Position numbers and translations under genes: made by a program. The notes under the pieces are model-generated. The model was not told the origin of the DNA and searched no databases. It saw only the letters and a program-made list of their open reading frames with translations. From Escherichia coli (lineage in GTDB: Bacteria; Pseudomonadota; Gammaproteobacteria; Enterobacterales; Enterobacteriaceae): a stretch of 64,000 bases of DNA. This document shows, piece by piece, positions 40,145-63,807 of this stretch. The DNA is taken from the NCBI RefSeq assembly GCF_045037415.1, contig NZ_CP173438.1; one strand, 5' to 3'. Position 1 is the stretch's first letter; each line of letters begins with the position of its first letter.

Positions 40145-40546
40145 AGTACCGCTTCATCAACGATCACCGTGAAATCTGGTCGATCGTAACAATGTGTCGG
40201 GTTCTGAAGGTCGCCCGTGCGGGATTTTACGTCTGGCTTCATCGCCCTGTTTCTGCCGGAGAAAAGGATAATCAGCGGTTGCTGGAGCTCATCCGCGATG
40301 CTTATGCACTGAGCGGCGGAGTCTACGGTTATCGCAGGGTTCACGGCGATCTTCGTGAAATCGGTGAAGTATGCAGCAGAAACCGTGTTGCCAGAATCAT
40401 GAAGCGGAACAGGATACAGGCCGTACATGGCTATAAGGTCCCGCGTGGCGTCAGGGGAAGGCCGTCACTGATAGCTCCTAATCGCGTACAGAGGGAATTT
40501 ACGATGGTAAAACCCAACCAGGTGTGGGTGACTGATATTACCTACA
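40105..40546 (+). CDS. IS3-family transposase OrfB, 5' exon (entered by -1 frameshift near CTGAAAAAGG)
   Basis: The -1 frame is open from 40087 and reads ...LKYRFINDHREIWSIVTMCRVLKVARAGFY...QVWVTDITY. It is then cut by the intron after 40546. Confidence 0.75.
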
Positions 40547-45019: not shown

Positions 45020-46415
45020 TTACGCCGCACCGTCCTTTTTAACTTCTCGCCAGATTCGCCATGCCATAAACGCCAGAACGGCAACGCCAAGTATTAACGC
45101 CCCCCACACCAGCAGCGTTTTCCACTGACTTTGTTGTTCGGCTGCCGACGTCGCCGTTAGTCGCAATTCACCGCCGAGAGTTACGCTCTCCTGCGGTATA
45201 GCCCACGGCAGATTATCTATCTCCTGCGTTTTACGCAGCGACGCAGGGATCAACATATCGAGTCCAACATCGGCCTTTTTCGCCGCCCGGTTTCCCCACG
45301 CCAGCATGTAAGGACCTTTGCCTTGCGTGTTAAAAACCAGTTGATAACTGTCGCGCGCACCGCTCAATGCTGGCAATGCCTCCGGCAATCGCGCATTAAT
45401 TGTACGTATTCGAACAGCCTCAACTAACTGGCCAGGAAGACGAATATCTTCTGAACGCTTCCCGTCCAGGCGATACAACACCGTTTTTGTCAGTGACTGC
45501 CAGGGTTCTTTTTCGCCGCTGCGCCAGACCAGTTCCACCGGTAAAACGCCTTCATTTTCCAGATCGATCCGCAACGATGTCAGGGGCTGCGGCTGTGTCC
45601 ATCGCCAGACGGCTTCATCATCCGACACCTTATCCGCCCGAGCGCCAATCACAATACGTTCGGACTCCGGCTCATTACTGTCAGCAATAGCGCTCACGCT
45701 GTTTAACGTCAGTGCCGGGCTTTGCGAGTTGAGGATCACCAGCAGGTAGCGATTTCCTTCAAGTGACAATGTCAGGTTGGTGCTGATGGCGTCCATTTTC
45801 AGACGATCGCTATCCCGCGTCAGATCCATTAACGGCGCATCTTCCTGCACGGGTCGCCAGTAGCGTAAATCACGGCTGACATAAACCGAGGCTTTCCCCT
45901 GCCAGTTGCCCGTCGGCGTCCCCCAGTTCAGACGCAATTGCGTCAGTGAAAGAGAGTCTTTCCTCTCTTCCGGCAACGTCAGTAAATAGCTCTGCCCGAG
46001 CGCAGTGACATCATCGCTTTGCAAATGAATTTCAATACCGTTTTTTGAACGTAAAACAACAGCATCCCCACTACGTTGACCCTCATCACGCGGCGGAACC
46101 GGCGACATATCAAGCGGGAAAAGACGCAGAGCCACTGTCTCTGGCGTAACGGTCTGGGTTTTCTGCGCCACCAGCGCAAACGGCACCATATCCCCCAGAT
46201 GGTTAAAAACCCGCACATCGCGCAAATCCGGCCATGCAGTGCTCTGATACACCACCTGCGGCAGCGAAATGCGATACCAGGGCGAATGCCCCCGTGGTTT
46301 CCAGCGCGACGCCTGTTGCGTAGTCCGTTGGCGCTTCCTTCACTTCATCGCTGCTGACCGCCGCGCCCGCAGTACTCAGTAGCACGCTGCATAACACCGC
46401 TTTCATCCATTTCAT
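45020..46415 (-). pseudogene. Exported protein with C-terminal TM anchor (DUF3999-like from memory), frameshifted in a G5/C5 run
   Basis: ATG at 46415 gives the signal peptide MKWMKAVLCSVLLSTAGAAVSS...VALETTG. The frame then changes at CCCCC 46289-46293 to HSPWYRISLPQVVYQSTAWPD... (ORF 45020..46255). Removing one base restores a single ORF of about 464 aa. Confidence 0.7.
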
Positions 46416-49069: not shown

Positions 49070-49206
49070 GTTTCCACCGTCGCGGTATAAAGATGGGTCA
49101 GAATGACACAAACTGTTGTATTTGTGCCATATGCATTAGCAAAGCGAGCCGCTTTTTCAGAAAATACCATCAACCTCTGCACGCAGGCAGAAACTGTAAA
49201 ATGCGA

Positions 49207-50065: not shown

Positions 50066-51463
50066 CTAGTCCTTCACTTTCATCGTGAAACCACGCCAGT
50101 CCGGTAGTGAAAGCGCGCCCGTTGCCACTACCCCATCATGATCCAGCATGCAGACACGACCAGGGTTCATACTGACAACCTCACGGATATACGCCTGCTC
50201 CACACCACAGATCATAAACGCCAACAGTGCCTTATTCCGCGCATATTGATGATGGTGAGTCTTTTCACGCTGATACACCTCACTATTAAGATCCAGTATT
50301 AATCCGACTTCATTAGCGTACCTGTGATAGTTACGCGGTGATGAACAACTCTTGCGGTGTGCGCCATGCACACGTTCCAGCAATGACTCAAGCGCAGATT
50401 TCAATGGACTGATATAACGGTTCCACCAACGCAAAATCTTTAGCGCCTTTTTTTTGCTGTTACCGCACCATCCATACACTTTTGCCCCAAGGCCATCATT
50501 AACACCAATAGTCACACGCCCAATTCTGTAGGTGGTGGTATGGACCATCTGTTTGCACTGTTTACGGGTCAGCCCGGTATGTTCCATCATGGTTTTATAT
50601 ATCGATGACTTCACACGATAATCGACGTCATACTGTCTGAACAGATGGTTCAGACAGGCCAGATTGCACGCTTCGATGTCATAGTTGAGTAACCCGGTCC
50701 GAAATTTAGCTTTGAACTCATTGGGCAGATTCTGGAAAGCTTGATCATAATACCGCCCTCCAAACGTCAGACGATAATGATGGTCGTAAGTGACATATTG
50801 TCCCTCAATCCTGCCATTGTAGAGATGGTTAAGGCTGCGTATTCCTGCGCGGTAATAGTGATCCGGCTCACGGCTACGCAATTCCTTCACAAACTGTATA
50901 CTCATGCGCCCCCGCCCAACTTTGGCCAAGAAGTCCTTTTCCGTTTGTTTTAGGGCCGTCTGGCGTTTCTCTACATCTATCGCATGCCCAGGAGCTTTCC
51001 CGTTCCCCTGAAGCAGAGCTCTAAAACTAACAGACTCACCAGTATCCAAGTCAACCAGATTTAACTTACCCCTGGCAGACTCATCACACACAGGCAGCAG
51101 GGGGTTGAACCGCCATGCACTGGCTCTACGCTTTTCCGGGTCTTTGCTCGCTTTTCCTGCACGAAATTCAATATCCGAAAGTGTCGGCAGGAAATCAGTT
51201 AGCGTGGACATAAAGCACTCCCCCTGGTAACTAATTTCACACTGTCCCAGGAGACTGGCATAGCTGCTACGGATATCCCGGACAGTGCATATAGTCCAGC
51301 CATCATCGTCTGTTTCCAGCCATATGTGAGCCAGGAACCACCGTACTGTCTGCCGCCGGGTAACAGCCCATTGCGTATCCCCCACGACATAATCCGTTAT
51401 TTCAGTAATACGGTCATAAACCCACTTAGGGATCTTCACTGGATAATCCTTTTCAGTACTCAC
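50066..51463 (-). CDS. Stand-alone family-A (Pol I-like) polymerase-domain protein with a novel N-terminal region
   Basis: 465 aa with a GTG start after GAGGGGA. Motifs read directly are NGRIEGQY...FGGRYYDQAFQNLP (cf. TGRxHTSY...TGRLSSxxPNLQNIP) and NYDIEACNL (motif A, DYSQIELR). Also present are RKQCKQMVHTTTYRIG (motif B, R-x3-K-x7-Y-x2-G) and MLDHDGVV (motif C, HDE). Confidence 0.65.
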   Translation of the reverse strand: MSTEKDYPVKIPKWVYDRITEITDYVVGDTQWAVTRRQTVRWFLAHIWLETDDDGWTICTVRDIRSSYASLLGQCEISYQGECFMSTLTDFLPTLSDIEFRAGKASKDPEKRRASAWRFNPLLPVCDESARGKLNLVDLDTGESVSFRALLQGNGKAPGHAIDVEKRQTALKQTEKDFLAKVGRGRMSIQFVKELRSREPDHYYRAGIRSLNHLYNGRIEGQYVTYDHHYRLTFGGRYYDQAFQNLPNEFKAKFRTGLLNYDIEACNLACLNHLFRQYDVDYRVKSSIYKTMMEHTGLTRKQCKQMVHTTTYRIGRVTIGVNDGLGAKVYGWCGNSKKKALKILRWWNRYISPLKSALESLLERVHGAHRKSCSSPRNYHRYANEVGLILDLNSEVYQREKTHHHQYARNKALLAFMICGVEQAYIREVVSMNPGRVCMLDHDGVVATGALSLPDWRGFTMKVKD

Positions 51464-51950
51464 GGTCCCCTCTCAGCATCCTCGTCTCACTACATTAACC
51501 AAACTCAACGCTGGGCAATTCGAAAGTCAAAACCCCAGTCGCGAGGATGGGCTCCGCCCATGATTTGCTCCACTCCGGTCGCAAATCTTTCCCCCTGTTC
51601 AGGCTGACGCCTTCCCTCACTCGCTGCGCTCGTTCGCCGTATCGTTTAATGACATGAGAAGGAGATGAAGCCTCCGTAGTGCTGCATGTCCCCAAGCTCT
51701 CCGTTGCGCTCAATGGCAATGGTGCTCGCTGACCGCTCCCCCCATTGTGTGTAGAATATTCACTGACAGAAACACAGAAAGCCCTCACAGATGCGCTAAC
51801 TCGTCAGTTGATGGTAAGGATCGGGTGTGCAGAGGCATCCGTGAGCCCCTGCAGAAAACAGACGGTTGCGTTAAAATCGAGACAGTTGGAATGTTAAAGT
51901 GCATCAGCGCCATCAAAATCACTGGCAAGCTTTGCAGTTTTACAACAACG

Positions 51951-51995
51951 AAAATGCAGTGGTTGCCGCTGTTATTCGTCGTTCCACTGCAATTT
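51951..51995. repeat. Inverted repeat AAAATGCAGTGG-N21-CCACTGCAATTT in the gap upstream of the polymerase gene
   Basis: 12-bp arms with one mismatch. The same 12-mer AAAATGCAGTGG recurs at 52930-52941. Confidence 0.8.
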
Positions 51996-52039
51996 AATCA
52001 ACAGCAAAAGTGCATTGCAGTTGCTGCATTACCGGTAAA

Positions 52040-52894
52040 TCAGTGCACTTTCCCTGGGGGTTGCCCAAACGAAAAAGAAACGACACCTGTTCCGAGTGAG
52101 TCCAGGGTAAGCAGACTTTTTAACAGTGTCCGGCCTTTCAGTAGCTCCATTCTTGACTTAACAAGAGCGTCTTTATCAGTCAGTGTGTAATCTGCTGTGT
52201 GCCAGACTGGATTCAGGGCGCATGAAATCAGTCTCGCGGGATCTTTATACCTGAGCACGATCACTGGTGTGTTAAGCGTCGATGCATCAATGAATGCCCC
52301 ACCACTTCGCGACATATGCGCTTTTAGCCCCTTAATCAACGTACTGTCATTGGGCAGGAACAAACACAACTGTGGAACCCAGAAAATACGCTCTTCTGGG
52401 CCATCAGGCATATGTCGCATCATACTGAAGGTGCCTGTGGCCGGACCGGCGTACCCCAGGCGGTTAAGTACCCGGCTTATCCTCTGCTTATAACGACCGA
52501 TTTGCGCCCTGAGCGCCCCAATGTTCTTCCATGGCGGCGGAGTTTGCGTATCCTTGTTGAAAAACAGGACCACTCCCACGTATTCTGCTGAATTCCCCGG
52601 CAAGACATGCAACATAGCCAGTTGCGCCAGAATGCGTTCCCGCTGGCAATGCGGGCATATAAGACTGTTGCATGGAGATCCGTTTCTGCACTGCCTTAGT
52701 TTTTGAGCAATGATGTTGTAGCAGCGATTGCTGCCTTTCAGTTTATTTAGTAAATGGTTAAGACGCTGCAGTTCATACTCACTTTCCTGCTGGGTAATAA
52801 TAGTGGGGAATGCTTTACTTAAAATCTCAAGCATTGACGGTGCGTGACGAATGTAATCCGGGTCAGATGTTCTGAAGTAATAAGAATCGTTCAT
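52040..52894 (-). CDS. Hypothetical protein with a CxxxxCPxC zinc-ribbon-like motif (possible replication initiator)
   Basis: 284 aa with AGGAA before the ATG. CNSLICPHCQRERILAQL resembles the Cys motif of some plasmid/phage Rep proteins, but I see no HUH motif. Confidence 0.55.
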   Translation of the reverse strand: MNDSYYFRTSDPDYIRHAPSMLEILSKAFPTIITQQESEYELQRLNHLLNKLKGSNRCYNIIAQKLRQCRNGSPCNSLICPHCQRERILAQLAMLHVLPGNSAEYVGVVLFFNKDTQTPPPWKNIGALRAQIGRYKQRISRVLNRLGYAGPATGTFSMMRHMPDGPEERIFWVPQLCLFLPNDSTLIKGLKAHMSRSGGAFIDASTLNTPVIVLRYKDPARLISCALNPVWHTADYTLTDKDALVKSRMELLKGRTLLKSLLTLDSLGTGVVSFSFGQPPGKVH

Positions 52895-52915
52895 TTAATA
52901 TTCCTAGCTGTATTG

Positions 52916-52950
52916 ATTACCCTGCCACCAAAATGCAGTGGCAGGGTAAT
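52916..52950. repeat. Perfect 13-bp stem hairpin ATTACCCTGCCAC-CAAAATGCA-GTGGCAGGGTAAT
   Basis: Read directly. It lies in the 87-bp spacer between the 155-aa and 284-aa genes, and its loop and right arm contain AAAATGCAGTGG. Confidence 0.9.
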
Positions 52951-52981
52951 ATGTCAGTTTTTCACCATACAGAAATGGCTA

Positions 52982-53449
52982 TTACCCGAATGACCTCGCC
53001 TGAGCATCTTCATGCCGCTCAACTAACTTATTGTAATCCCAATGATAAGAGGAATTTTTGTCGTTTGTTTCTAAAAAATCTAAAAATAACTCAGGCAACT
53101 GATATAAAGCGTATTCCCCGGTTACATCCACCCCCTGATAATGTAATTGCTGAGCGGTAGAACAATATGCACAGGCCCTGCTCCCGCAGGGAATGTATTT
53201 ACAACGCTCAAGGATAAGCGCCAGTTTAGCGTAGTTGCTCCACATGTCATCGGCCCCGCCGCAATCCTGTATGAGAATATTGGACACTGTATATGCAGAT
53301 GCGTAGTTAAGCTTACGTATCCGTAAACGCTGCTCCTTTAACACTGCTGATATCGTTTCTTGTGATAAACCAACCTGTTTCCCCATAGTTTCGAACCAAG
53401 GAACCAGCGTTTTTTTCGCAGAACTGGTTTTCGATTTTATCTCTTTCAT
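52982..53449 (-). CDS. Hypothetical Cys-rich protein
   Basis: ATG at 53449 (MKEIKSKTSSAKK...) lies 1 nt after the alpA stop and is preceded by GGAGA, giving 155 aa. Contains CKYIPCGSRACAYC. Confidence 0.55.
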   Translation of the reverse strand: MKEIKSKTSSAKKTLVPWFETMGKQVGLSQETISAVLKEQRLRIRKLNYASAYTVSNILIQDCGGADDMWSNYAKLALILERCKYIPCGSRACAYCSTAQQLHYQGVDVTGEYALYQLPELFLDFLETNDKNSSYHWDYNKLVERHEDAQARSFG

Positions 53450-53450
53450 T

Positions 53451-53648
53451 TCATTCTCCCGCCTGCATACGGCTGTTAACCCAGTTATTGATATCACTCT
53501 CCAGCCAGCCTACCGCCCGGCCATTGTCGCCCGTTAGCCTCTTTGACAAAGGAAAGAATCCTTTCGAGATGAGTCGGTACAACGTCGCTGACGAGTTCCC
53601 CGTCAGATGAAGTACCTCTTTTTTACGCAAAATACGGTTGGTGTTCAT
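53451..53648 (-). CDS. alpA: AlpA-family phage/island transcriptional regulator (excisionase-like HTH)
   Basis: 65-aa ORF MNTNRILRKKEVLHLTGNSSATLYRLISKGFFPLSKRLTGDNGRAVGWLESDINNWV, a typical AlpA signature. Confidence 0.85.
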   Translation of the reverse strand: MNTNRILRKKEVLHLTGNSSATLYRLISKGFFPLSKRLTGDNGRAVGWLESDINNWVNSRMQAGE

Positions 53649-53714
53649 GCTTGTGCTCCTTTGAGCTGTTTCAGGAGCGGGTTATTTACAACCACCAAAA
53701 AACGCAAGGATTCA

Positions 53715-53735
53715 CTCAACGATGCCTTCGTTGAG
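53715..53735. promoter_or_regulatory. Palindrome CTCAACGA-TGCC-(T)TCGTTGAG in the divergent promoter region
   Basis: An 8-bp inverted repeat between alpA (-) and the 204-aa gene (+). It is a candidate operator. Confidence 0.4.
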
Positions 53736-53870
53736 CACGTTAAGGGCATCTTTAATGTGGATGTCATTCGAGATCATCTATTTCTGTCTCCAGAACGGTC
53801 ATATAAAGAAGCAATTTTCACTGAGGCTCAATGGTGATATTTTGTACAAAACACTGTCATGGAGGTGACT

Positions 53871-54485
53871 ATGATTGGTAACCAAAGCAACAAGGCTGAC
53901 GCCAGATGCCACCGGGAACGGAAAAGCAGTAACGAGGTCTTTGAATTTCTGGAGAAGAAGCTTTATCTGGGACGGGATACCCGGCAAAAACTGGCACTGA
54001 TTGCCCGGAAACTGACGGGAGCGGGTTTTAGCCCGGATAAATTCGCTGCGGAGAAAGCGGCAGATGTGCTGAGTGCCTGCGTGAACCACATGTTTAATGA
54101 CCTGCTCAATGAGGGAGAGCCAAACGGGATTTATAGGCCGGAGGAACACCCCATGATAGTCCCGGCCAGGTCCCCTAAGGCACTGGAAATCTATACTGTT
54201 TACCAGCTTGTAAAAGGTCGTTTTGACAAGCTTCATACGGGGGAGTCAGATCGTGAGAAATATGCTTCGGTAGCAGAAAAACTTAATGAGTATGGAATAT
54301 GGAAACCCCGGTTAAAACGACTCTCTGACGGTAAAGAATGGGCGCGTGAGGATGTTGCGTGGATGCTTCAGCCTGAAAATATCAATGCACAAATTAACAT
54401 CCAGAATCAAAAGTACGCGCGGTTGAGTGCTGAAGATGAAACTGAAACCGAGTCTGGCAACGCCTCAACTGCTAAAAACATCTGA
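53871..54485 (+). CDS. Hypothetical protein
   Basis: The ORF track starts at 53859. ATG 53871 is preceded by GGAGG, giving 204 aa. I recognise no motif. The 3' end overlaps the convergent recombinase gene by 14 nt. Confidence 0.55.
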   Translation: MIGNQSNKADARCHRERKSSNEVFEFLEKKLYLGRDTRQKLALIARKLTGAGFSPDKFAAEKAADVLSACVNHMFNDLLNEGEPNGIYRPEEHPMIVPARSPKALEIYTVYQLVKGRFDKLHTGESDREKYASVAEKLNEYGIWKPRLKRLSDGKEWAREDVAWMLQPENINAQINIQNQKYARLSAEDETETESGNASTAKNI

Positions 54486-55401
54486 TGCGCTTGCTGGCAC
54501 TGATCTTCATAGTATCACCACGACAGTCATAGCGCGTCGTCGTGGATATGTCGCTGTGGCCTGCCAACTGGCGGACGGTATTGATATCCACGCCCTGCTC
54601 CAGCAAACGGGTGATGAAGGTGCGCCGCATATCATGCGGGGTAAAACGTGCTATACCTGCCGTTTGCTGTAACTCAGCCAGGATACCCGTTAACCCGGTC
54701 GTAGTCAGCGGTTGGCTTGCGACCTTACCACTGCGCTGAATTCGCCTAAACAACGCACTGTCAGCCTCGTCTGCGCCAACTTTCAGCCACGCACGAATAG
54801 CCTTGTCCACCGCATCCGCCACGTGAATTTCACGGTATTTACGCCCCTTCCCTTGCCTCACCGTCAGGATGCCGTTGTCATAGTCCCGGCGCTCAAGTTT
54901 AACCAGTTCCCCGGCCCGCAGGCCCGTTCCGCAAAGCATCAGCACAATGGCGACATCGCGACAGCGCCGTACAGATTGCGGATGCTGTTTTGCAGCCTGA
55001 ATCAGTACCCGGATTTCCTGCCTGCCCAGCGCCCTTCCCTTGCGCTGGACATCGCCGCTCACGCGCTTAACTGACCGGATACGTGCCAGCGTTTCGGCAT
55101 CCATGTAATTGAGGTTAAAGGCCGTCTGCGCTACGCCCCGGAGTGCTGACAGCGCCATGTTGACCGATGACACGGCGTAACCGTCATCCAGCAGTGCCGC
55201 GCGCACTTTGGCAACGGCGGCGTAGTTAAGTTGTTCCCACGGATAGTCTGCTGCATCCGCACCGTGTTTAAGTATGCTGGCGCTGCGGTTTAACAGGCTG
55301 GTGATACCTCGCCGTCCCGAGGGGGCCAGACCGACAATATACGCATCGAACACGGTGGTTTGCACCACCGGCACGACCTGACGCAACGCTGTCCTGCTCA
55401 T
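54472..55401 (-). CDS. Tyrosine recombinase (XerC/D-like phage integrase family)
   Basis: Catalytic contexts are TGLRAGE (R), GKGRKYR (K), HDMRRTF (HxxR), GHSDISTT (H) and TRYD (Y). I prefer ATG 55401 to the TTG at 55416. Confidence 0.85.
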   Translation of the reverse strand: MSRTALRQVVPVVQTTVFDAYIVGLAPSGRRGITSLLNRSASILKHGADAADYPWEQLNYAAVAKVRAALLDDGYAVSSVNMALSALRGVAQTAFNLNYMDAETLARIRSVKRVSGDVQRKGRALGRQEIRVLIQAAKQHPQSVRRCRDVAIVLMLCGTGLRAGELVKLERRDYDNGILTVRQGKGRKYREIHVADAVDKAIRAWLKVGADEADSALFRRIQRSGKVASQPLTTTGLTGILAELQQTAGIARFTPHDMRRTFITRLLEQGVDINTVRQLAGHSDISTTTRYDCRGDTMKISASKRIRCF

Positions 55402-55447
55402 GCGCGTAACCCGCAATAACGTACATTAAACCAAGTAACTTTCAGCA

Positions 55448-55900
55448 TCACACCAGTCCTCGCTCAGCCATCGACACCGTTTCAGTTCCTGCCACGATAA
55501 AGTGATCAAGTAACCGCACATCCAGTATTTCCAGCAGCTCCTGAAGCTTTTTGGTCAACTGGATGTCACACCGGCTGGGTTCAGGCTCGCCGCTGGGGTG
55601 ATTATGGACAAGGATGACGGCGGCGGCGTTATGTTTCAGCACACGCTTAATAACTTCACGGGGGTGAACGCTGACCGAGTTTAGCGTACCCCTGAACAGG
55701 ATTTCGCGGTGCAGCAGCTGATTATGATTATCGAGTAGGATGATGCCAAACTCTTCATGTTCAAGCGGTGCCAGCTCAACCATCACGCACCGTCGAACAT
55801 CATCAGGGGAACAGAGTTGAACCCCACGCTGGTAGTACCGGCTAATAATGTCACGCGCCTGGTCAAGGATACGGGTTTCACGCTGGGTAAACATGGTCAT
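55448..55900 (-). CDS. RadC-like JAB/JAMM domain protein (YeeS/YfjY/YkfG family)
   Basis: ATG 55900 lies 1 nt after the upstream stop. The JAMM motif is LVHNHPSGEPEPSRCD. Confidence 0.85.
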   Translation of the reverse strand: MTMFTQRETRILDQARDIISRYYQRGVQLCSPDDVRRCVMVELAPLEHEEFGIILLDNHNQLLHREILFRGTLNSVSVHPREVIKRVLKHNAAAVILVHNHPSGEPEPSRCDIQLTKKLQELLEILDVRLLDHFIVAGTETVSMAERGLV

Positions 55901-55901
55901 G

Positions 55902-56441
55902 TCAGAACTCCCGTTCAATGAAGTAAATGGCGTCTGGAAACAGCTGGCGGCGGGTTACGCCAGTACGCAGGGAGAAAGCTTTACGGGGCATGGTGGTTCG
56001 CCCGTTGCTGTCGAAGAAGCAGAGCATTTCTTCGTCCATTTTGACCAGAAGGGACCAGTGAAACTGGTCGCTGAGCATAATCAGGCGAGAGTGGTCAGTG
56101 ACGTCAAGAAACCGCTGCATTTCCCTGAACAGCCGCCCGTCTGTTAACCCCCGCTTCCCTGCAAAGGGTCTGGTGATTTCAACCGGGAACTGGCGGCGGT
56201 AATGCCCTTTCTGCAACACCTGAGCTATTAACCAGTCTAAGCGGTCTTCTTCAATTCCTTCAGTCAGCCATTCATGCAAAGGCCAGCGCTGCTGATAAGT
56301 CTGAATAAGCCAGTTCATTAACGGGCGTCGTTTCACCCTGCCGTCATACAGCCAGCTCAGCATGTTAACCACGCAATAAGCACCGCAAAGACAGTCCAGT
56401 TCGCCCTGTTGAGACGCACGTATCCCTCTGTCAGTCGTCAC
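55902..56441 (-). CDS. Predicted papain-fold cysteine peptidase-like protein
   Basis: 179 aa with a GTG start after GGGGA. QQGELDCLCGAYC has the Gln-x5-Cys spacing typical of papain-like oxyanion/nucleophile pairs. DQFHWSLLV...FFDSNG supplies candidate His and Asp/Asn residues. Confidence 0.5.
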   Translation of the reverse strand: MTTDRGIRASQQGELDCLCGAYCVVNMLSWLYDGRVKRRPLMNWLIQTYQQRWPLHEWLTEGIEEDRLDWLIAQVLQKGHYRRQFPVEITRPFAGKRGLTDGRLFREMQRFLDVTDHSRLIMLSDQFHWSLLVKMDEEMLCFFDSNGRTTMPRKAFSLRTGVTRRQLFPDAIYFIEREF

Positions 56442-56482: not shown

Positions 56483-56905
56483 TTAGCTTTCCCAGAGAAC
56501 GGTAATGGTGTAGATGTTCATGCCGTGATACTGAATAAAGTTGGATTGCCAGAGTTCAAACAGCTCCCTTCCGGCGTTAACAGGCAGGTCACCAACATAA
56601 GCAAGAAAGACATATTGCTGACTCCAGCTGATATCAATTTCCTTTTCAAGTTCGGGGTATACCGTCCCCATATAACTGAAGTCGGTAATGTAATCAAAAT
56701 ACCATTCATCATTGCGTGAAATAATCCGTATTTCGACAGGATGGTAACCACCCTTTTCAGCGCTGTAACTCAGGTCTTTAAATAACAGACTGACGGCTGT
56801 AATTTTGGCTTTATGCGGCGGTGGATTTCCCGCTTCATTTAATATGATATTTATTAATTCCTGATCGACGGGCATAGCTAGCCCTTCCTGATGGACAATA
56901 TTCAT
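56483..56905 (-). CDS. Hypothetical 140-aa protein (possibly DUF2787-like; family recalled with low certainty)
   Basis: AGGAAA precedes the ATG. It is the first gene of the minus-strand operon 56905->54472. Confidence 0.5.
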   Translation of the reverse strand: MNIVHQEGLAMPVDQELINIILNEAGNPPPHKAKITAVSLLFKDLSYSAEKGGYHPVEIRIISRNDEWYFDYITDFSYMGTVYPELEKEIDISWSQQYVFLAYVGDLPVNAGRELFELWQSNFIQYHGMNIYTITVLWES

Positions 56906-57162
56906 CAGTGATTTTCCTGTTCAATATATTCTGATAAGACGTTATGTCTGCACCAGCACAGGTGGGGTTTAATCACCTAATAAATGGTAAGTGCATGACA
57001 ACGTACTGACTGGGTAAAATATAGTTCACCAGCAATATTATTATATCAAAAATATACTTTTTATGCAAATAGTAACAAAGAGAAACTAATATGTGGTTCA
57101 GCAATGAAATAACTGGCAATAGGTTTTTATTCATTATTAAGTGATGGCATACTTTCCATTCT

Positions 57163-57214
57163 GCCATGTCAGACAGGTCAGGATTCCGGGGTGGTTCCTT
57201 CTGTCTGGCATGGC
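57163..57214. repeat. 14-bp-stem inverted repeat just 3' of the c-like repressor gene
   Basis: GCCATGTCAGACAG-N24-CTGTCTGGCATGGC pairs with one G-U. No U-tract occurs on either strand. Confidence 0.7.
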
Positions 57215-57229
57215 GGAAAACTGACGCTA

Positions 57230-57718
57230 TCACACCTTCCCGTTCAGCTTTTCAAAGAGGCGCTTACGCTCATCTTCGGGCAGCTTCATGATTTGTACCG
57301 CCAGTTCAGAAACATTGGGCACCTGAGACATCAGATCGTCCTTTACCAGCCTGAGGGCCTGCTCCATCAGTTGCGCCCGCGAAGCTGGCGACATATTGCG
57401 ATACAGCTGCACCCAGAGGCTTAGCTGGCGATCACTGTCGTTGAGAGTAAACGCTTCGCCCTTAGCCCTGTTTCTCTCATCATCAAGCGACATTGTGGCT
57501 GCGCTAATATGGTAAACCACACCTTTCCCGGCAGTCCTTTTACGACGTATTTCCGGGTGCAGGGATGCCAGCTTTTCCAAGCGCATCCTGGCGCCACGCG
57601 CAGTGCCCGGCATCCCCTCAATATGAGTGAATTCCTCTGCTGTCAGCCAGTCTTTAGCCTCTTCAACAGAAGCTTCAGGATGAGTAGGTATAGCCGAAAC
57701 TGTTCTCTTACTGCTCAT
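57230..57718 (-). CDS. Mu Repc(c)-like DNA-binding repressor
   Basis: ATG 57718 gives 162 aa. EEFTHIEGMPGTARGARMRLEKL...RKRTAGKGVVYH parallels the Mu c repressor N-terminal winged-helix region (...MPGSVAGVHYRA...RKKEGVKGGKAVEY) as I recall it. Confidence 0.6.
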   Translation of the reverse strand: MSSKRTVSAIPTHPEASVEEAKDWLTAEEFTHIEGMPGTARGARMRLEKLASLHPEIRRKRTAGKGVVYHISAATMSLDDERNRAKGEAFTLNDSDRQLSLWVQLYRNMSPASRAQLMEQALRLVKDDLMSQVPNVSELAVQIMKLPEDERKRLFEKLNGKV

Positions 57719-57764
57719 ATAAATTTCACCAGATATCAATGCGTTAATATGAAAACCAATAAAT

Positions 57765-57792
57765 AGATACCAAAAGAACTTGAAAGGTATCT
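57765..57792. promoter_or_regulatory. Inverted repeat AGATACC-N14-GGTATCT in the c/ner divergent intergenic region
   Basis: Read directly. The region also contains three TTAATA(T/C) copies. It is a candidate operator. Confidence 0.4.
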
Positions 57793-57839
57793 TTTATTCG
57801 CATTTAATATCCATGTACTGATTCCATGGAGTTAATACT

Positions 57840-58109
57840 GTGCGTAACTCAACAGCATCGCAGAAAAAGCAAATCAAAGGAAGTTCAGGGAACTGGCATC
57901 GTGCCGATATTGTGGCAGCACTTCACAAGCGAGGGTTAACGCTGGCGTTACTGTCACGCAGTCACGGCCTTGCGCCACGGACATTAAATAACGCCTTAGA
58001 GCGTCATTATCCCAGAGCTGAGCGCATTATTGCCGGGGCTCTGGATACGACACCGGAAACATTATGGCCGGAAAGGTATGCCCTTAAAAATGGACCTAAT
58101 AGCAGGTAA
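57840..58109 (+). CDS. Ner/Nlp(SfsB)-family DNA-binding protein
   Basis: 89 aa. WHRADIVAALHKRGLTLALLSRSHGLAPRTLNNALERHYPRAERIIAGALDTTPETLWPERY is the Ner-like HTH signature. Confidence 0.85.
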   Translation: MRNSTASQKKQIKGSSGNWHRADIVAALHKRGLTLALLSRSHGLAPRTLNNALERHYPRAERIIAGALDTTPETLWPERYALKNGPNSR

Positions 58110-58120
58110 AGGATGCAACC

Positions 58121-58648
58121 ATGGCAACCACCATCACTGAAATAACGGAATGCTTTGAGTATTTTTTCAGTTCTCTTTATCGCAGGGAGTTCGTCAAAAC
58201 CCTGCGTCTGAACGAATGTAGCGAGCGGGAATTACTGCCTCTGGTACGTTGCTATTTGCTGGGTTGGTTTGCAGATAACGTCTCACCGGAAGTAAAAAGC
58301 AAACTGCCAGGAACTGTATCCGGGCACGGTTACATTGATTTTGTCATTGACGATGTGGCCGTTGAGTTTGCAGTACGTAAACCAACTGCGGCACGTTCCA
58401 ATGTCTCTGCGACCGTCAACAGTACAGAAGTAAAGAAATTGATGAAACATGACGGCAAAGCCTTGCTTGTGCTGTTTGATTTCTCTGACACACCCTATTC
58501 AGAAGAACAGATTGAATCCTTCCGCAACTGGCCCTCTCTTGGTCGAGGGAATCATCGCAAGTCTGCATTCAACGTCGTTTATTTCTTTGTGGAAAAACGC
58601 AGACCGCTGGCACTGGGGAAAATCACCAAAAACATCCGTATCACTTAA
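58121..58648 (+). CDS. Hypothetical cytoplasmic protein, possible PD-(D/E)xK-like fold
   Basis: 175 aa with AAGGA before the ATG. GYIDFVIDDVAVEFAVRK...STEVKK could supply D...E.K, but the spacing is atypical. Confidence 0.5.
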   Translation: MATTITEITECFEYFFSSLYRREFVKTLRLNECSERELLPLVRCYLLGWFADNVSPEVKSKLPGTVSGHGYIDFVIDDVAVEFAVRKPTAARSNVSATVNSTEVKKLMKHDGKALLVLFDFSDTPYSEEQIESFRNWPSLGRGNHRKSAFNVVYFFVEKRRPLALGKITKNIRIT

Positions 58649-58662
58649 CAGGGAATTAATTA

Positions 58663-59022
58663 ATGAACAGAAAACTGTTGGCCTTATTCATGGCAGCCAT
58701 AACGCTACCAGTCGCAGCAGCGCAGTACGTAAAACCCGGAGCGGTTCTAACCCTGCATCCGGGACAGAATAACGCTGAATTCAACATTAATGCCTCAACG
58801 GGGGATGGTTCGGGCGTATGCAATATGGAGGGGACAGCACAGCAAATAGCTGCCGGAGAAAGTCAGAAGCGTCGCTGGGTCTGGAATGACAATGCCAGCG
58901 AGTGTGTTGCAGTAATTAGTGAACTGACAAACGGTAAGGCCAGCATTATGACACGTGGTTGCGAGGGATACTGCGGGGCTTCTGCGGCAGGCGCAATGGA
59001 TGGTCTATTTAATAAGAAATAA
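58663..59022 (+). CDS. Hypothetical secreted protein (signal peptide, four Cys)
   Basis: 119 aa. MNRKLLALFMAAITLPVAAAQ is a signal peptide ending in an AxA-like cleavage site. Confidence 0.55.
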   Translation: MNRKLLALFMAAITLPVAAAQYVKPGAVLTLHPGQNNAEFNINASTGDGSGVCNMEGTAQQIAAGESQKRRWVWNDNASECVAVISELTNGKASIMTRGCEGYCGASAAGAMDGLFNKK

Positions 59023-59052
59023 AAGTATCATTAATTTACGAAGGAACTACAG

Positions 59053-59388
59053 ATGAAAAGAGCAATACTTCTGGTATTAATTGCTGCTGGTTTGCTGGCT
59101 GGCTGCGGCGAGAAAACGCCAAAATGTAGTAGTGATGATGCAAAAAATCTGGTCGGGGATATTGCAAGAAAGACAATCGAGAAAGGGATGAAACTGGATA
59201 AGGATGTGCGTATTTCTGTAGAAAATGTCAGAACAATTAGCCATGAATCAGATCTGGATGTTTATCAGTGCGCTGCTGATTTAACGTTTACAAAACCAGA
59301 TTTGCAAAATTCTCTACCAATCACCTACCGGATTCAGAAAACTGATGAGGGTAAAGGTCCGTTTTATATAAACGTAACAGGTTTATAA
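59053..59388 (+). CDS. Hypothetical lipoprotein
   Basis: 111 aa with the lipobox LLAGC after a hydrophobic leader, and AAGGA before the ATG. Confidence 0.6.
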   Translation: MKRAILLVLIAAGLLAGCGEKTPKCSSDDAKNLVGDIARKTIEKGMKLDKDVRISVENVRTISHESDLDVYQCAADLTFTKPDLQNSLPITYRIQKTDEGKGPFYINVTGL

Positions 59389-59454
59389 TCACTGAATAAC
59401 ATCCGGGTTCCTTTTGGGTGAAATAATTCATGTTTTATTCCAAAAGGAAACCCT

Positions 59455-59700
59455 ATGAAAAAGATCATCATATTTACCATTATAGCTATTATCACATTTA
59501 GTTGGCTCGTTACACACAATACAACTGAGTCCGAAAAAATCCCTCCTGCTAATACTCCCTTTATTATTAAGTCTAACGTACCTGGCATGTGCAAGGTCAG
59601 CGCCATCACAACCTCTACAGATACCAAACAGAATATACCTGTCGTAGCGTGCAAAATCAGCATTACGACCGCAATCACTTCCAGTACTACCAGTTACTGA
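59455..59700 (+). CDS. Hypothetical small signal-anchored protein (Thr/Ser-rich)
   Basis: 81 aa. MKKIIIFTIIAIITFSWLV is an N-terminal TM segment. AAAGGAAA precedes the ATG. Confidence 0.5.
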   Translation: MKKIIIFTIIAIITFSWLVTHNTTESEKIPPANTPFIIKSNVPGMCKVSAITTSTDTKQNIPVVACKISITTAITSSTTSY

Positions 59701-60267
59701 TCACTGTGTTTACTTTACCGACAGACTGGGATACAAAAACGTCAAACACCTTCTCAATCAGTCTTATACCGTAAGCAATGCCGGGTGTGTCGGGCTCTGA
59801 GGGTTGATTAATTCCACAGGCATATGAAGACTAAATCCTACCATCCCCATACCTGCTGAGCCGCTCCGTTGAACATCTTTATCGCCTTGCTGTGGGTGCC
59901 AATCACGGCTATCCCCGCCCGTCTTGTAGGTTGGGGCTCACCAAATACGATGCCACTGGGAAGCTCTTTCAGTGTCACGTAATGCCATTTATAGCCCAGA
60001 TATGACCTGCTACTGAGCTAACTACATTGATTTGCCTAAATCCTGGGGCCTCTAAAGCGTCAGCGCCGCGCAGCAGTATAGGCAAGCCACTTTTAACGGG
60101 TTTTATCCGGCTCCCTGAGGCTGCTTTCAGAAAAGGCGTGTAATCGGATAACTACAGCAACCTAGGGAAGTATGTGCTTGTAGAATGAATGCAGTGGTAA
60201 TCAAGACTACCGCTTTTACAAACCCCACCAATCGTATAACTGCGATTTGATGGCTACCCATCCTAAG

Positions 60268-62154
60268 TTACTTCATTAAAATAGCACTATTTTTTGAGGG
60301 CAGCGGGATAAGGGCTCTGCGCTCTCCATCCATTGCATGTTCACCCGCAAACCATTCGTAATGAACTTTATTCATGATTGATACCGGCGGTTCTTTATTC
60401 TCTATAACTATGATTTGTAAGGTATCAGGCAATTGGGTCAGTGAATGCCAGAAGCCTTCCTCAATACCAGCCGATATGGGTTCATCGAAGCCCGATACCG
60501 TAGCAGCGGCTTTCTTCTTATAACTTGTCAGCGGTGAATCAATCACGACTAGCCCAGGATGCGGGTATCCTTTTTTAATACAATATTTTAGTAATCCAAT
60601 GATGAAAGCTGAATAAAGAATGGCACGAACACCTTTACCGTGAGACTGCCGAGGTTGTCCATCAACAATGATGTCATACTCTTTTTCATTAAATGAAACG
60701 TCAGGCTCGGCACCCCATTTCCAGTCTTTTAAAACAGTTTCAATTTCTCTACAAAGTTCGGCCAGCGTACGGGTAGATAATCCCTCCCATTCGAGCCGTG
60801 GTTGACTGCTCTTTTCCAGCAGTATTTCTATATCCTTTTGATGTTTTAGTAACTCAAACCATCTCTGTCGATCATTCAACTCAGAGTCTCTTTCAGCTCG
60901 CTGCTCAATAGCTAAATCTAGGCTTTCTTTGGAAAGTGTAAGAAGAGGCTCAAAAGTATATTTGATCTGGTTCTTCATTCCATCCAAGCTTTCTTTTGAC
61001 TTATATCTGTCTATATTCAGAGCTTCTTTTCTTCGGTCAAGATCACTCATCGCTTTTTGCAGGCCTGCAAGGTATCCATGAATTTTTGCAGCTTCAGCTA
61101 AAGAAGAACGTCGGACTTCATTACTGTTCATTAATTTTTTAGCGTTCTCACTGTGTGGATGTAGTAAATTTTGTCCACAAAGGGAACAAGGAACTTCCTG
61201 AAGTGAAGTGAAATAGTGAGAACCTTCGGAAATAAAATCCAACCGCTTCAGGTCGGAATGGTAACGTTCTTCTAATAGGCTATATCTCGATTGAATTTCA
61301 GATACTCCCATTAACTGAGATTCTATTTTTAACGTTAACGCTGTCTCCATTTTTATTCCCTCGAGCAAGTCAGAAATAGCGGCTGCAGCCCTCTCAACTT
61401 CATCAATTGCTTGTGCAATCAATTGATCTGATAAATCATCTGCTGAGCTCGTTAATGGAAACTTGGGCGAACAAATTGAGAAACGTTCATCAAGTGGTCG
61501 AATCAAATCCTGGATGAATTCAAGCTTCGCCATCAACCTCGCTTTTACAATTTCAGGCTTTTCCTCTACGGTAACACCACCATCATCGTGCCCGGTAAGG
61601 ATGTATGAAAACATGCGTTTTCGAGCAGTGTCGTCATAACCGGAACGTCCCGTTACTGGCGAGTATTCGTCGATAATGGATACTTCATCTACCAAAAATA
61701 TAGGAGCGAGCGTTCGAATCGAGAAACGTTGCGTTTCGCCACGAGCATTCTTGCGAAGCTTCGCCTCTTTGATCCCCGCAAAAGGGAAAAGTATGGACGT
61801 CACATCTGGCCCCTTACTCGTTCCTTTACGCACAGGAGCAATTATTTTACCTTCTCCATGGATGTCTTGAATAGCGACATCATGTGCCTCTAATTTCCCC
61901 CCCTCAAGACCGCGCTTGAGCGTTAACACCCCCCCTTCATCATTTTCGAATTCAACATAAAGATGGGTGTAATCGGTGGCCTCTTTAAGCTTTTTTTTGA
62001 GTTTTTCGGCACCAAGAATGTAGTCAAGACAACTCACAAGGTAACTTTTCCCAGTATCAGATTCCCCTGCTAGAATATTCGCACCCTTATAGAAATCAAC
62101 ATAAGCGTCTTGAACGCTGTTTCCGCGCAATAGTATTTTTCTTATACGAAGCAT
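60268..62154 (-). CDS. Rad50/SMC-like ABC ATPase (LmuB / ABC-3C ATPase, DUF3732-like)
   Basis: ATG 62154 lies 1 nt after the upstream stop (MLRIRKILLRGN...). It has Walker A GESDTGKSY and a long central helical region with CSLCGQ (CxxC, zinc-hook-like). The C-terminal motif is GLVVIDSPLTSY (Walker B/D-loop). Confidence 0.75.
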   Translation of the reverse strand: MLRIRKILLRGNSVQDAYVDFYKGANILAGESDTGKSYLVSCLDYILGAEKLKKKLKEATDYTHLYVEFENDEGGVLTLKRGLEGGKLEAHDVAIQDIHGEGKIIAPVRKGTSKGPDVTSILFPFAGIKEAKLRKNARGETQRFSIRTLAPIFLVDEVSIIDEYSPVTGRSGYDDTARKRMFSYILTGHDDGGVTVEEKPEIVKARLMAKLEFIQDLIRPLDERFSICSPKFPLTSSADDLSDQLIAQAIDEVERAAAAISDLLEGIKMETALTLKIESQLMGVSEIQSRYSLLEERYHSDLKRLDFISEGSHYFTSLQEVPCSLCGQNLLHPHSENAKKLMNSNEVRRSSLAEAAKIHGYLAGLQKAMSDLDRRKEALNIDRYKSKESLDGMKNQIKYTFEPLLTLSKESLDLAIEQRAERDSELNDRQRWFELLKHQKDIEILLEKSSQPRLEWEGLSTRTLAELCREIETVLKDWKWGAEPDVSFNEKEYDIIVDGQPRQSHGKGVRAILYSAFIIGLLKYCIKKGYPHPGLVVIDSPLTSYKKKAAATVSGFDEPISAGIEEGFWHSLTQLPDTLQIIVIENKEPPVSIMNKVHYEWFAGEHAMDGERRALIPLPSKNSAILMK

Positions 62155-62155
62155 G

Positions 62156-62671
62156 TTATAAATCCAGTAGATCAATTGCGGTCAATCGGTCGAATTCAGA
62201 ACCCCATTGCCCCACATTCTGAGATATATATGAAGCAAGTTCTTCATCCGTATATTCATAGAATTGCTTTGTGACCCAAGAGGCACGTTCTGCGAGCTCT
62301 TTTGAATACTGTGACATCAAAAGCCGCACAAACCTTCCTGTTAAATTGGTAGCCTGATACAAAATACCTTCGGCAGCAAAGACAACCTTAATCAATTCTC
62401 TTGATAGCATTAAATGCAGCCCTGCCTGAATTGCGCTTCGCTTAACAAGAAGCTCTGCTCCCCGGTGAGGAACTGCTGGATGAAGGCTTTTAGGCCCCCT
62501 AGGTACGTCACTGGTATGCACAAGAAGATAGTCATACGAAACTATCCTTTGTAGGTCCATTGCTACATTGTCCGCTGCATCCAATATGAACAGAGCACGA
62601 AATCCATACTCCAGCGGAGTGTTAAAAGGTCTCTGCTCAAAGTTTCCTTCAAATACTTGCATTTCGCTCAT
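62156..62671 (-). CDS. Small helical middle component (LmuC / ABC-3C middle-component-like)
   Basis: ATG 62671 forms an ATGA overlap with the upstream stop, giving 171 aa with no enzymatic motif. Its position between effector and ATPase matches three-gene Lamassu. Confidence 0.6.
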   Translation of the reverse strand: MSEMQVFEGNFEQRPFNTPLEYGFRALFILDAADNVAMDLQRIVSYDYLLVHTSDVPRGPKSLHPAVPHRGAELLVKRSAIQAGLHLMLSRELIKVVFAAEGILYQATNLTGRFVRLLMSQYSKELAERASWVTKQFYEYTDEELASYISQNVGQWGSEFDRLTAIDLLDL

Positions 62672-63807
62672 GGATTGCACCAATTAATCAAGTTTGTATT
62701 GGCTAGTTGGTGGCATATACCTTCACGATCCTTATTCGTTACGTGAATGGCAAGTGGGTGCGCACCAAGTTGCAGGGTCTGAGCGGCCTTGACGGTATTT
62801 TTTAACCGAAGGAGTGGAGTCCCTGTCAGGTCAGAGGTGTAGTGATACAGACCATCATCAAACTCTACAAGTAAAGAATTAAAGAATTCTTGATTCGCCA
62901 TTTGGTCCCTAGCGAGTTCCTTTAGCCCTTCCGAGCAATAAAAAGTTATTCGGGACCGTTCAAAGAGTTTTACATGGCTGATACTTGATTGAAAATCAAC
63001 TAAATCTCGCACGTTGGTTTTGATATCAGCGCTGATAACTGAAAAGAGTTGTTCAATATATACAGTTTCAATGGGAGCCACAGATGATGGGGGCCTAGTT
63101 GGTGGATCCCGCTCAATTAATGGTGCGCCAAAGACCATAAGATGAAAAGAGGTTTTACTGTGTTCGGCAAGTATCTCAATAGGCTGTTTTGCATGAAAAA
63201 TACTAAAATCAAACTCTTTAATATATTTTTCAAGTTCAGGCGTCAGGTCAACACTATGTTTCGATGTAATTTGCTTTGAAAAAGTTGCCCACTCGGATAG
63301 CATTTTCTCTTTGAGTTTAGTTGGATCATCTAGGAGGTCTTGGAATGGCGATGTTACCCCTTTATGTGTAACAAAATGGTATTGTGTAGGTACTGTGTAG
63401 TCCTTGATGAAAGTATAATAGATAACTTTTGCAACTTCGATGCCTGCCTTAGGAAGGCCTAAATTCGCATCATAATGTTTGCATTGATATAAGTGCCATC
63501 TTCGAGGAACAGCATCAGATGGATCAAGCCATACAACAATATCTCTGCCTTTATCTCCTGCCCCGCCACGTTGTTGTACTTCGTTGACATATTGCTGACC
63601 AGCTAAGTATTCAGAGGCCCATTCGAGTGTAAACCTTTCAAATTCGGCGGCGCTAAACTGTGCCAGACGATCCAAGGGGGCTATTGGAAGCCCTACACCT
63701 AACCCAAGCAGCCGAGCGTTCGCACCCGGCCACGTTGTAGGAGCAGAAAGCGCGCCAAGCGTCGAACTTGAATTTTGTTTCATCTTCTCTACCACCACAA
63801 CCTCCAT
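62668..63807 (-). CDS. Mrr-type PD-(D/E)xK nuclease fused to a long C-terminal domain (LmuA-like effector)
   Basis: 379 aa, with an alternative ATG at 63783. FERFTLEWASEYL...GGAGDKGRDIVVW...WHLYQCKHY matches the Mrr_cat pattern (D-G-x-D ... Q-x-K). Confidence 0.7.
   Translation of the reverse strand: MEVVVVEKMKQNSSSTLGALSAPTTWPGANARLLGLGVGLPIAPLDRLAQFSAAEFERFTLEWASEYLAGQQYVNEVQQRGGAGDKGRDIVVWLDPSDAVPRRWHLYQCKHYDANLGLPKAGIEVAKVIYYTFIKDYTVPTQYHFVTHKGVTSPFQDLLDDPTKLKEKMLSEWATFSKQITSKHSVDLTPELEKYIKEFDFSIFHAKQPIEILAEHSKTSFHLMVFGAPLIERDPPTRPPSSVAPIETVYIEQLFSVISADIKTNVRDLVDFQSSISHVKLFERSRITFYCSEGLKELARDQMANQEFFNSLLVEFDDGLYHYTSDLTGTPLLRLKNTVKAAQTLQLGAHPLAIHVTNKDREGICHQLANTNLINWCNP

Follow-up and report, generated by a model that had tools for sequence, protein, structure and literature searches.

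A Mu-type c/ner switch as the probable regulatory core of an integrative island family with defence cargo in Enterobacterales

Escherichia coli contig NZ_CP173438.1 carries, within a 64-kb stretch that was analysed as a whole (the window; negative results given for the window cover all 64 kb), two divergent regulatory genes that resemble c and ner of bacteriophage Mu. The locus is probably the regulatory core, a Mu-derived two-repressor switch made of c and Ner, of a family of non-transposing integrative islands of Enterobacterales that serves as a platform for defence cargo. This reading draws on the homology of both regulators, on synteny between genera, on the architecture of the control region and an integration host factor (IHF) consensus within it, on the operon-like packing of the genes after ner, and on the limits of the island and the defence cargo adjoining the module. 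The switch is a known one, whereas the type of host element and the output are new.

Homology of the two regulators to phage Mu

The initial annotation of this DNA, made from the letters alone, had described a c-like and a ner gene diverging from a 121-bp AT-rich region and had taken the pair as homologous to Mu c/ner. Both genes lie where it placed them (Table 1), and the homology holds for each. Ner matches the Pfam family PF13693 HTH_35 above its gathering score (E 1.5e-26) as well as phrog_769 (E 1.2e-29), and it shares 62% of 63 aligned residues with Mu Ner (E 1e-30). The 162-residue repressor candidate, c162, which has a GGTGA upstream of its ATG, has no match in Pfam or NCBIfam and is connected to Mu through its N-terminus, a Mu-type helix-turn-helix (HTH) by similarity. 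It matches phrog_310, the N-terminus of Mu-type transposases (E 8.9e-8), and phrog_7148, a repressor family (E 9.4e-6), and a BLASTP alignment with Mu Repc gives 27% identity over 51 residues (E 9e-5) with a common W-x-[ST]-x-x-E...GMPG motif. c162 is also 42–44% identical to the N-termini of plasmid proteins annotated as Mu transposases. When the c family profile was compared by hhalign with the N-terminus of the transposase of a Neptunomonas Mu-like prophage, the match had a probability of 97.5% and an E of 7.4e-12. This transposase (L044, 8236–12833) combines HTH_Tnp_Mu_1, rve and Mu-transpos_C domains and sits between ner and a MuB-like ATPase; the N-terminal domain of the island c is nearer to it (44%) than to Mu Repc (27%). 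Searched against the PDB, the family profile has the DNA-binding domain of Mu c (1g4d/1qpm) as its top match, albeit a weak one (E 0.31). The AlphaFold2 model of c162 (mean predicted confidence, pLDDT, 66) has a beta-alpha-alpha-beta-beta arrangement followed by helices. From these comparisons, residues ~20–90 of c162 are predicted to be the Mu-type DNA-binding domain common to the Mu repressor and transposase, with a winged HTH at ~20–75 and a helical C-terminal part.

Members of the c family come in two lengths, ~126 and ~160–166 residues, which differ by a helical C-terminal tail of ~35 residues (alignment A1). The C-terminus of the Mu repressor modulates DNA binding and ClpXP sensitivity, and by analogy the tail of the longer family members may set inducibility. 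A search of 50,697 phage records gave no close relative of the c-like protein or of o175, the product of the gene after ner. In the Neptunomonas prophage the divergent repressor is a LexA/CI-type S24 peptidase.

A conserved control region with a Mu-like IHF consensus

The region between c and ner is 120–122 bp long in 30 of 32 family sequences, although identity falls to 46% for c and to 65% for Ner. The initial annotation had read an inverted repeat (AGATACC-N14-GGTATCT) and three TTAATA copies in it as the layout of the Mu switch. All of these elements are present, but they are at chance level in a single sequence, for which reason phylogenetic footprinting on an alignment of 23 distinct family sequences was used instead. 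That this is a real control region follows from its conservation between species and not from the motifs of any single sequence.

One family-wide element that connects the alignment with Mu is the IHF consensus WATCAANNNNTTR. Its family form, TATCAA-NNNN-TTA, is found in 21 of the 23 sequences, always in the same orientation and 15–17 nt from the c start codon; the four N positions vary across the family, and a chance match would be expected in 2.3% of sequences. Only two matches to WATCAANNNNTTR occur in the window. The Mu counterpart, TATCAACGCGTTA, lies 18 nt from the start of Mu c, and in a blastn comparison the control region and the Mu operator region are identical at 14 of 15 nt over this element. 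In Mu, IHF binds the operator/enhancer region and favours the early promoter Pe (PMC3820752 and its references). The site in the window is a predicted one.

A second family-wide element is an imperfect palindrome, AAAAG-NN-AC-N7-GT-NN-CTTTT, for which 77.5% of cells in the 23 sequences are complementary, against 45–62% when the register is slid by 1–3 columns. Dyads of the AAAAG/CTTTT type presumably resemble the Mu repressor site consensus. In the window the palindrome is centred on a TTGAAA, and in the family alignment a block TTCGC(A/T)TTTAAT lies 17 bp downstream of the corresponding TTGAWA (TTGA(T/A)A). TTGAWA and TTTAAT can be read as a −35/−10-like pair for ner, which would make the palindrome over the −35-like box a candidate c operator at the ner promoter. 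The other conserved block consists of GTACTGA and the ner Shine-Dalgarno sequence.

The AGATACC/GGTATCT repeat overlaps this palindrome. It occurs once in the window, is limited to the E. coli-type subfamily and is not kept in divergent members. Two of the TTAATA copies (57744, 57804 and 57832) sit in the IHF and TTCGC(A/T)TTTAAT blocks and the third lies between the ner Shine-Dalgarno sequence and the start codon, so they are better read as −10-type promoter or leader and Shine-Dalgarno-spacer sequence than as a triple operator. A ner-proximal dyad, TCCATG-N9-CATGGA, was considered as a general operator and seemed to co-vary in some members; it was rejected, being absent or reduced to 3–4 bp in about half of the family.

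The island family and the question of a Mu relic

The same c/ner arrangement, for which the initial annotation had proposed a search in other genomes, was found at about 30 loci in about 20 genera by means of a c-family profile run against one genome per species together with exact-protein look-ups. The genera include Salmonella, Cronobacter, Citrobacter, Cedecea, Mangrovibacter, Erwinia, Pectobacterium and Klebsiella as well as Enterobacter, Yersinia, Serratia, Hafnia, Sodalis and Budvicia. The common order is lip111 <- (o119) <- o175 <- ner <> c -> DUF2787 -> o179 -> RadC -> Int314, continuing beyond Int314 with (o208 <-) AlpA, o171, o284 and o465. A P4-type integrase is found on one side or the other of the family loci, often by mutS; in E. 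coli of the ST131 type the site is the 3' end of ychF. Small signal-peptide proteins and lipoproteins recur after ner-o175 across the family, even where their sequences are unrelated. Such islands, which are widespread in Enterobacterales, occur in ~10% of complete E. coli genomes, mostly of the pandemic ST131 type.

Immediately past the ner operon comes a variable segment that holds defence systems in many members: Avs1b in Mangrovibacter, Lamassu in Erwinia and PDC-S06 in Cedecea, Ppl-like and mads-like proteins elsewhere, and OLD-TOPRIM/UvrD (Gabija-like) and SIR2 genes in Cronobacter. A second E. coli variant carries a type I restriction-modification system at the other end of the island.

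These distributions bear on whether the pair is the left-end remnant of a decayed Mu-like prophage that has lost A, B and its ends. In favour of such a relic are the homology of the pair to Mu c/ner and the IHF consensus, a 14-of-15-nt stretch that the Mu operator region also has, equally far from the start of c. However, the window has no similarity to MuA or MuB (best tblastn E 0.7–1.3), and a blastn-short search with the left 340 bp and right 200 bp of Mu alone gave matches of only 10–15 nt (E >= 0.15), in line with the initial annotation, which had found neither transposition genes nor Mu ends and had already set the prophage idea aside. Furthermore, a transposase-free order that is syntenic across the family and under purifying selection would not be yielded by random decay, and the element is bounded by attachment repeats of the integrase type. 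We consider a Mu relic scarcely credible.

Two records in PLSDB, CP088398.1 and CP054248.1, are E. coli ‘plasmids’ of 377 kb and 542 kb, both typed as non-mobilizable, that contain the c/o175 region at 99–100% identity; they look like pieces of chromosome filed as plasmids.

The predicted ner operon and the near-invariant o175

Four short genes follow ner, encoding one cytoplasmic and three envelope proteins, as had been noted at the outset and as open reading frames, export signals and spacing confirm. The gaps in the series ner-o175-o119-lip111-o81 are 11, 14, 30 and 66 nt, each gene is preceded by a Shine-Dalgarno-like purine run, and a consensus scan found neither promoter-like nor terminator-like sites between ner and lip111. 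An Rfam scan of 56800–60400 gave no match. The exported o119, with four cysteines at 53, 81, 100 and 104, is conserved in a subset of family loci, and most loci have some signal-peptide protein at its position. The lipoprotein lip111 is present in most family loci; its homologues are confined to Enterobacterales and none is characterised. o81 occurs in few family loci and is outside the family-wide core, and DNA homology with Cronobacter stops at 59389, before o81. The initial annotation had counted all four genes as cargo. This part of it has to be revised: ner-o175-(o119)-lip111 is conserved backbone, and the variable defence cargo starts beyond it.

The most constrained gene of the module is o175. 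Within the island family its product is 99–100% identical where synonymous divergence is 0.35–1.0, and its ratio of non-synonymous to synonymous change (dN/dS) is 0.008–0.009 at dS 0.8–1.0, against 0.04–0.15 for neighbouring genes. Homologues that are 64–99% identical are found in Enterobacterales, Aeromonas, Pseudomonas, Salinisphaera, Nitrosomonas, Syntrophobacteraceae and Geobacter, with 66–69% identity between the E. coli protein and those of Geobacter or Nitrosomonas. Among 1.8 billion representatives, an exhaustive HMMER search detected no more than 121 clusters (50% identity). A protein that is near-frozen from E. coli to Geobacter usually signals interaction with a very conserved partner. 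Used as a query, o175 has no match in Pfam, NCBIfam, PHROG or PADLOC and none in the PDB by sequence or profile searches, and its AlphaFold2 model, built on a 22-sequence alignment, is unusable (pLDDT 42.6). A diverse alignment keeps E35, G48, E57, D73, E82, K106, D120 and Y154, of which E35, D73, E82, K106 and D120 are near-invariant, with E82 in the sequence VAVEFAVRK, and single family members have weak Pfam matches to PDDEXK_9 (E 0.02) and DUF4420 (E 0.22). The D73/E82/K106 pattern fits a PD-(D/E)xK-like site, and such a fold is possible. In Geobacter and Nitrosomonas (L008–L013) o175 is a solitary gene with toxin-antitoxin genes (HicAB, MazE, HigB) around it and neither ner nor c in the vicinity. 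A ner-o175 toxin-antitoxin pair or a pairing of the C-protein/restriction kind was rejected, as o175 occurs without ner, ner without o175, and RefSeq annotation holds no methyltransferase.

One interpretation of the operon makes ner-o175-(o119)-lip111 a regulated system of phage defence or exclusion. o175 would serve as its effector, of a nuclease type, with the envelope proteins in the part of sensors or blockers; c would hold the system in check and might also sense infection by Mu-like phages. The module is in a defence island and directly adjoins a defence hotspot, o175 has the D...E...K pattern with faint PD-(D/E)xK hints in Pfam, and elsewhere it is found among toxin-antitoxin genes. Small prophage lipoproteins are also classic exclusion factors. 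However, PADLOC (2023 library) has no match at E <= 0.1 for o175, o119, lip111 or o81, nor for c or ner. Defence effectors usually evolve fast, and a dN/dS of 0.008 would be out of the ordinary for one; the search of phage records found no close relative of o175, and the o175 model lends no structural support. An operon that is a defence system in its own right is accordingly quite unlikely in our estimate, and the same holds for a sensing role of c within it.

An RNA hairpin is predicted on the plus strand at 59405–59453, between lip111 and o81, with its 3' arm covering the Shine-Dalgarno sequence of o81. It was also detected as an inverted repeat, and its stability (−23.4 kcal/mol, z = −3.7) was equalled by none of 200 shuffles. 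Loci without o81 lack the hairpin, whose arms, GTTCCTTTT and AAAAGGAAAC, are similar to the half-sites of the family-wide palindrome of the control region.

Limits of the island and the backbone on the c side

In RefSeq annotation of strain H105 combined with family scans, the E. coli island spans 27 kb between ychF and dhaR. Its genes run from a P4-type integrase through insertion sequence (IS) elements, DUF3999/DUF2339, o465, o284, o171, AlpA-like and o208 to the XerC-like Int314, RadC, o179 and DUF2787, and then to c/ner with the ner operon, Lamassu and a retron Ec67-type reverse transcriptase. None of the two tyrosine recombinases, the AlpA-like gene, RadC, DUF2787, Lamassu or the retron had been seen in the initial annotation. 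The left end coincides with the 12-bp sequence TTCAACGTCTAA, which recurs as a direct repeat 27.3 kb away, beyond the retron and before dhaR (strain H105; L001 29600–29690); the right end of the island lies outside the window and was seen in this strain. The repeat TGAGTACA is enriched (5 found against 1.4 expected) with copies at both island ends, and these are likely integrase arm sites. Since the 3' end of ychF and TGAGTACA are both repeated at the far end, the whole block is an island of the integrase type. Exact attachment (att) repeats of at least 14 nt were not found in seven other family loci, with the exception of one 14-nt match in L018.

The position of c at the head of this backbone raises a different interpretation, namely that the switch mainly controls the life cycle of the island (excision, transfer or replication) by way of Int314, AlpA, the P4-type integrase and o171/o284/o465, with the genes of the ner operon as accessories. 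c is the first gene of a same-strand series, c-DUF2787-o179-RadC-Int314, no terminator-like site follows it, an AlpA-like gene of the excisionase type and unknown backbone genes come next, and switches of the Mu and lambda types normally govern element mobility. The 325-bp gap between c and DUF2787, however, contains a strong promoter-like site of its own on the minus strand (57040–57078, sigma-70-like, TTTGCA-18-TATAAT with an upstream TG), which suggests that DUF2787-o179-RadC-Int314 has its own promoter, and in Salmonella a fragment of the CbtA toxin gene lies in this gap (L002 10819–11049), which argues against a tight operon. Moreover, the side equivalent to Pe, which carries the mobility genes in Mu, has only o175 and envelope genes here, and the operator-like AGATACC repeat is found nowhere else in the window. 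Control of the life cycle as the main task of the switch is therefore unlikely in our view, and a route through the recombinases and the o171/o284/o465 genes is unlikely with it.

Proposed mechanism

Which protein occupies which site, repression, bistability, the inducing signal and the task of the operon are inferred, and the working of the switch is drawn by analogy with Mu. In the probable core switch of the island family, the ner promoter would be silenced by c bound at the dyad, and IHF would bend the control region and set the balance of the two promoters. Ner, after its synthesis, would turn c off and control its own expression. With the switch ‘on’, transcription from the ner promoter would cover ner-o175-o119-lip111(-o81) in place of the ner-A-B of Mu. 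That the products of this operon serve induced protection or exclusion for the island, at the envelope and at the level of DNA, is a guess and the weakest step of the model.

Several results speak against this model or parts of it. Three fold searches of the c162 model returned generic winged-helix regulators with Mu Repc not among the top matches, and the direct profile comparison of c with Mu Repc was weak (42% probability); c162 is therefore placed by profile homology, because fold searches of a moderate model returned only generic winged-helix proteins. In the control region, single-sequence motifs are at the level of chance, as shuffling the 121 bp yields a perfect inverted repeat of 7 bp or longer in 29% of cases and some hexamer in three or more copies in 16%, and covariation in the palindrome is not significant against shuffles of the 23 sequences. 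The hexamers of the putative ner promoter are non-canonical (TTTAAT has no A at position 2) and were missed by the consensus scan. Geobacter and Nitrosomonas have o175 with neither ner nor c, and the Salmonella variant lacks o175, so that the link between this gene and the switch is not a strict one; o175 accompanies ner very commonly but not obligatorily. Finally, searches for homologues and in Pfam, PHROGs, NCBIfam and PADLOC, where the envelope and backbone proteins had matches only at the level of the signal peptide, point to no function for o119, lip111 or o81; the surface or exclusion role suggested in the initial annotation is a putative one.

A bolder version of the model has the captured, complete Mu immunity switch act as a sensor of infection or stress that fires the o175-led operon. 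The trigger would be the loss of c, or the transposase or Ner of an incoming Mu-like phage competing at an operator of shared type. o175 would then be a new, near-invariant effector with a nuclease fold that acts on a highly conserved cellular or phage target, while the exported protein and the lipoprotein would block entry. This would amount either to a defence or exclusion module of an undescribed kind, gated by a regulator, or to parasitism on transposable phages in the manner of a satellite, and we regard it as a long shot.

If the core-switch model is correct, integrase-borne defence islands have taken over a whole phage decision circuit from a transposable phage, with its two repressors, the spacing of their control region and its IHF site. 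The switch would offer a simple and testable handle on the regulation of the island core genes, and the end of the ner operon would mark a precise hotspot, just downstream, at which diverse defence systems are exchanged.

Relationship to known systems

The closest counterpart of the module is the immunity and early-control region of Mu (c, Ner, Pc/Pe, O1–O3 and the IHF site), with which it shares divergent c and ner genes, a Ner that is 62% identical, a c with a Mu-type N-terminal domain and an IHF consensus placed and oriented alike relative to the c start. It differs from Mu in the length of the control region (121 bp against 169 bp), in the size of c, which has 162 or 126 residues against 196 in Mu and is ~27% identical in the DNA-binding domain, and in having o175 and envelope genes after ner where Mu has A/B/kil. 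The island has no Mu ends, and any mobility it has would depend on tyrosine recombinases.

Recruitment of Ner homologues outside Mu has precedents, for example SfsB (PMC8987985). Like SfsB/Nlp of E. coli, the island Ner is a Ner-family HTH_35 protein outside a transposable phage, and it matches the NCBIfam SfsB model with an E of 1.5e-19, below the family cut-off. In contrast to SfsB/Nlp, it is still paired with a Mu-type repressor and a Mu-like control region, which indicates a move of the whole switch and not of one regulator.

The overall plan of the island is reminiscent of the pipolins and of the rare ‘piPolB-less pipolin-like islands’ of Gammaproteobacteria, which are bimodular, with a conserved core and an exchangeable defence module (PMC11551731). 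Pipolin cores are described as having an integrase of the IntSXT/P4 type and another tyrosine recombinase with an excisionase after it, together with DUF2787 and orphan proteins (PMC11551731), and judged by gene content as described there, the island likewise combines a core and a defence module with two tyrosine recombinases, an excisionase and DUF2787. It differs in the absence of the hallmark piPolB: a DNA polymerase is neither annotated anywhere in the island by RefSeq nor detected when the large open reading frames are scanned against Pfam. No WYL gene was seen. A c/ner module is not mentioned in the pipolin paper (PMC11551731), and full-text literature searches for the c/ner island module or its RefSeq accessions found nothing.

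The exclusion lipoproteins of the Cor, Llp and TraT/Eex types offer a further comparison, in that a small lipoprotein and an exported protein lie downstream of an immunity-type regulator on a mobile element. Sequence comparison with these families yielded only marginal matches confined to the signal peptide (Cor in PHROG, E 0.1; EexN in NCBIfam, E 0.066) and gave no sign of homology.

Features of the window

Table 1. Positions of the c/ner module and of the island features around it in the 64-kb window
Feature	Position	Strand	Description
c162, c-like repressor candidate	57230–57718	-	162 residues, ATG start; open reading frame, same coding sequence in RefSeq annotation
c/ner divergent control region	57719–57839		121 bp, 28% GC
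IHF consensus match TATCAATGCGTTA	57734–57746	+	predicted site, 16 nt from c start codon; consensus WATCAANNNNTTR
AGATACC-N14-GGTATCT inverted repeat	57765–57792		AGATACC at 57765, GGTATCT at 57786; 7 bp, 14-nt spacer
Family-wide imperfect palindrome, local copy	57772–57795		AAAAG-NN-AC-N7-GT-NN-CTTTT; centred on −35-like TTGAAA 57780–57785
−10-like TTTAAT	57803–57808		17 bp downstream of TTGAAA
ner orthologue	57840–58109	+	89 residues, GTG start, GGAG upstream
o175	58121–58648	+	175-residue cytoplasmic protein, no signal peptide, uncharacterised family
o119	58663–59022	+	119 residues, exported; signal peptide ending VAAA/Q (cleavage at the slash)
lip111	59053–59388	+	111-residue lipoprotein, lipobox LLAG/C18 (cleavage at the slash)
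o81	59455–59700	+	small Thr/Ser-rich protein, hydrophobic N-terminal anchor
att core TTCAACGTCTAA	38348–38359		last 12 nt of ychF; island left end
TGAGTACA arm-like repeats	38490–38541		three copies, between att core and integrase
P4-type integrase	38574–39749	+	Arm-DNA-bind_3, Phage_int_M, Phage_integrase (Pfam); directly after ychF
o171, o284, o465	50066–54485 (backbone segment)		o465 at 50066–51463, minus strand; assigned by synteny, no family matches
AlpA-like HTH	53451–53648	-	AlpA Pfam domain seen in Salmonella and Cronobacter counterparts
o208	53859–54485	+	backbone by synteny; no family match
Int314, XerC-like tyrosine recombinase	54472–55416	-	Pfam; NCBIfam XerC-like match below cut-off
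RadC	55448–55918	-	Pfam; c-side backbone
o179	55902–56441	-	c-side backbone, syntenic
DUF2787	56483–56905	-	Pfam; c-side backbone; own promoter-like site of the c-side genes at 57069–57040
Lamassu (LmuB, LmuC, LmuA-like)	60268–63807	-	convergent to ner operon

The variable segment of this E. coli island holds Lamassu, identified by PADLOC matches to LmuB (E 2.8e-176) and LmuC (E 4.3e-57), with an LmuA-like protein that has an ABC-3C CTD6 match and weak Mrr_cat matches. The gene for the retron Ec67-type reverse transcriptase/endonuclease follows Lamassu beyond the window and before the right end of the island, according to the RefSeq annotation of H105.

Relative to H105, the window has ~2.26 kb of extra sequence with IS3-family genes at 40546–42807 and is without the copy of ISEc52 that H105 carries at the equivalent of 51820. 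Between IS remnants inside the island lies the DUF3999/DUF2339 pair (45020–49111, minus strand), which includes a large predicted membrane protein; the DUF3999 gene is annotated as frameshifted in H105.

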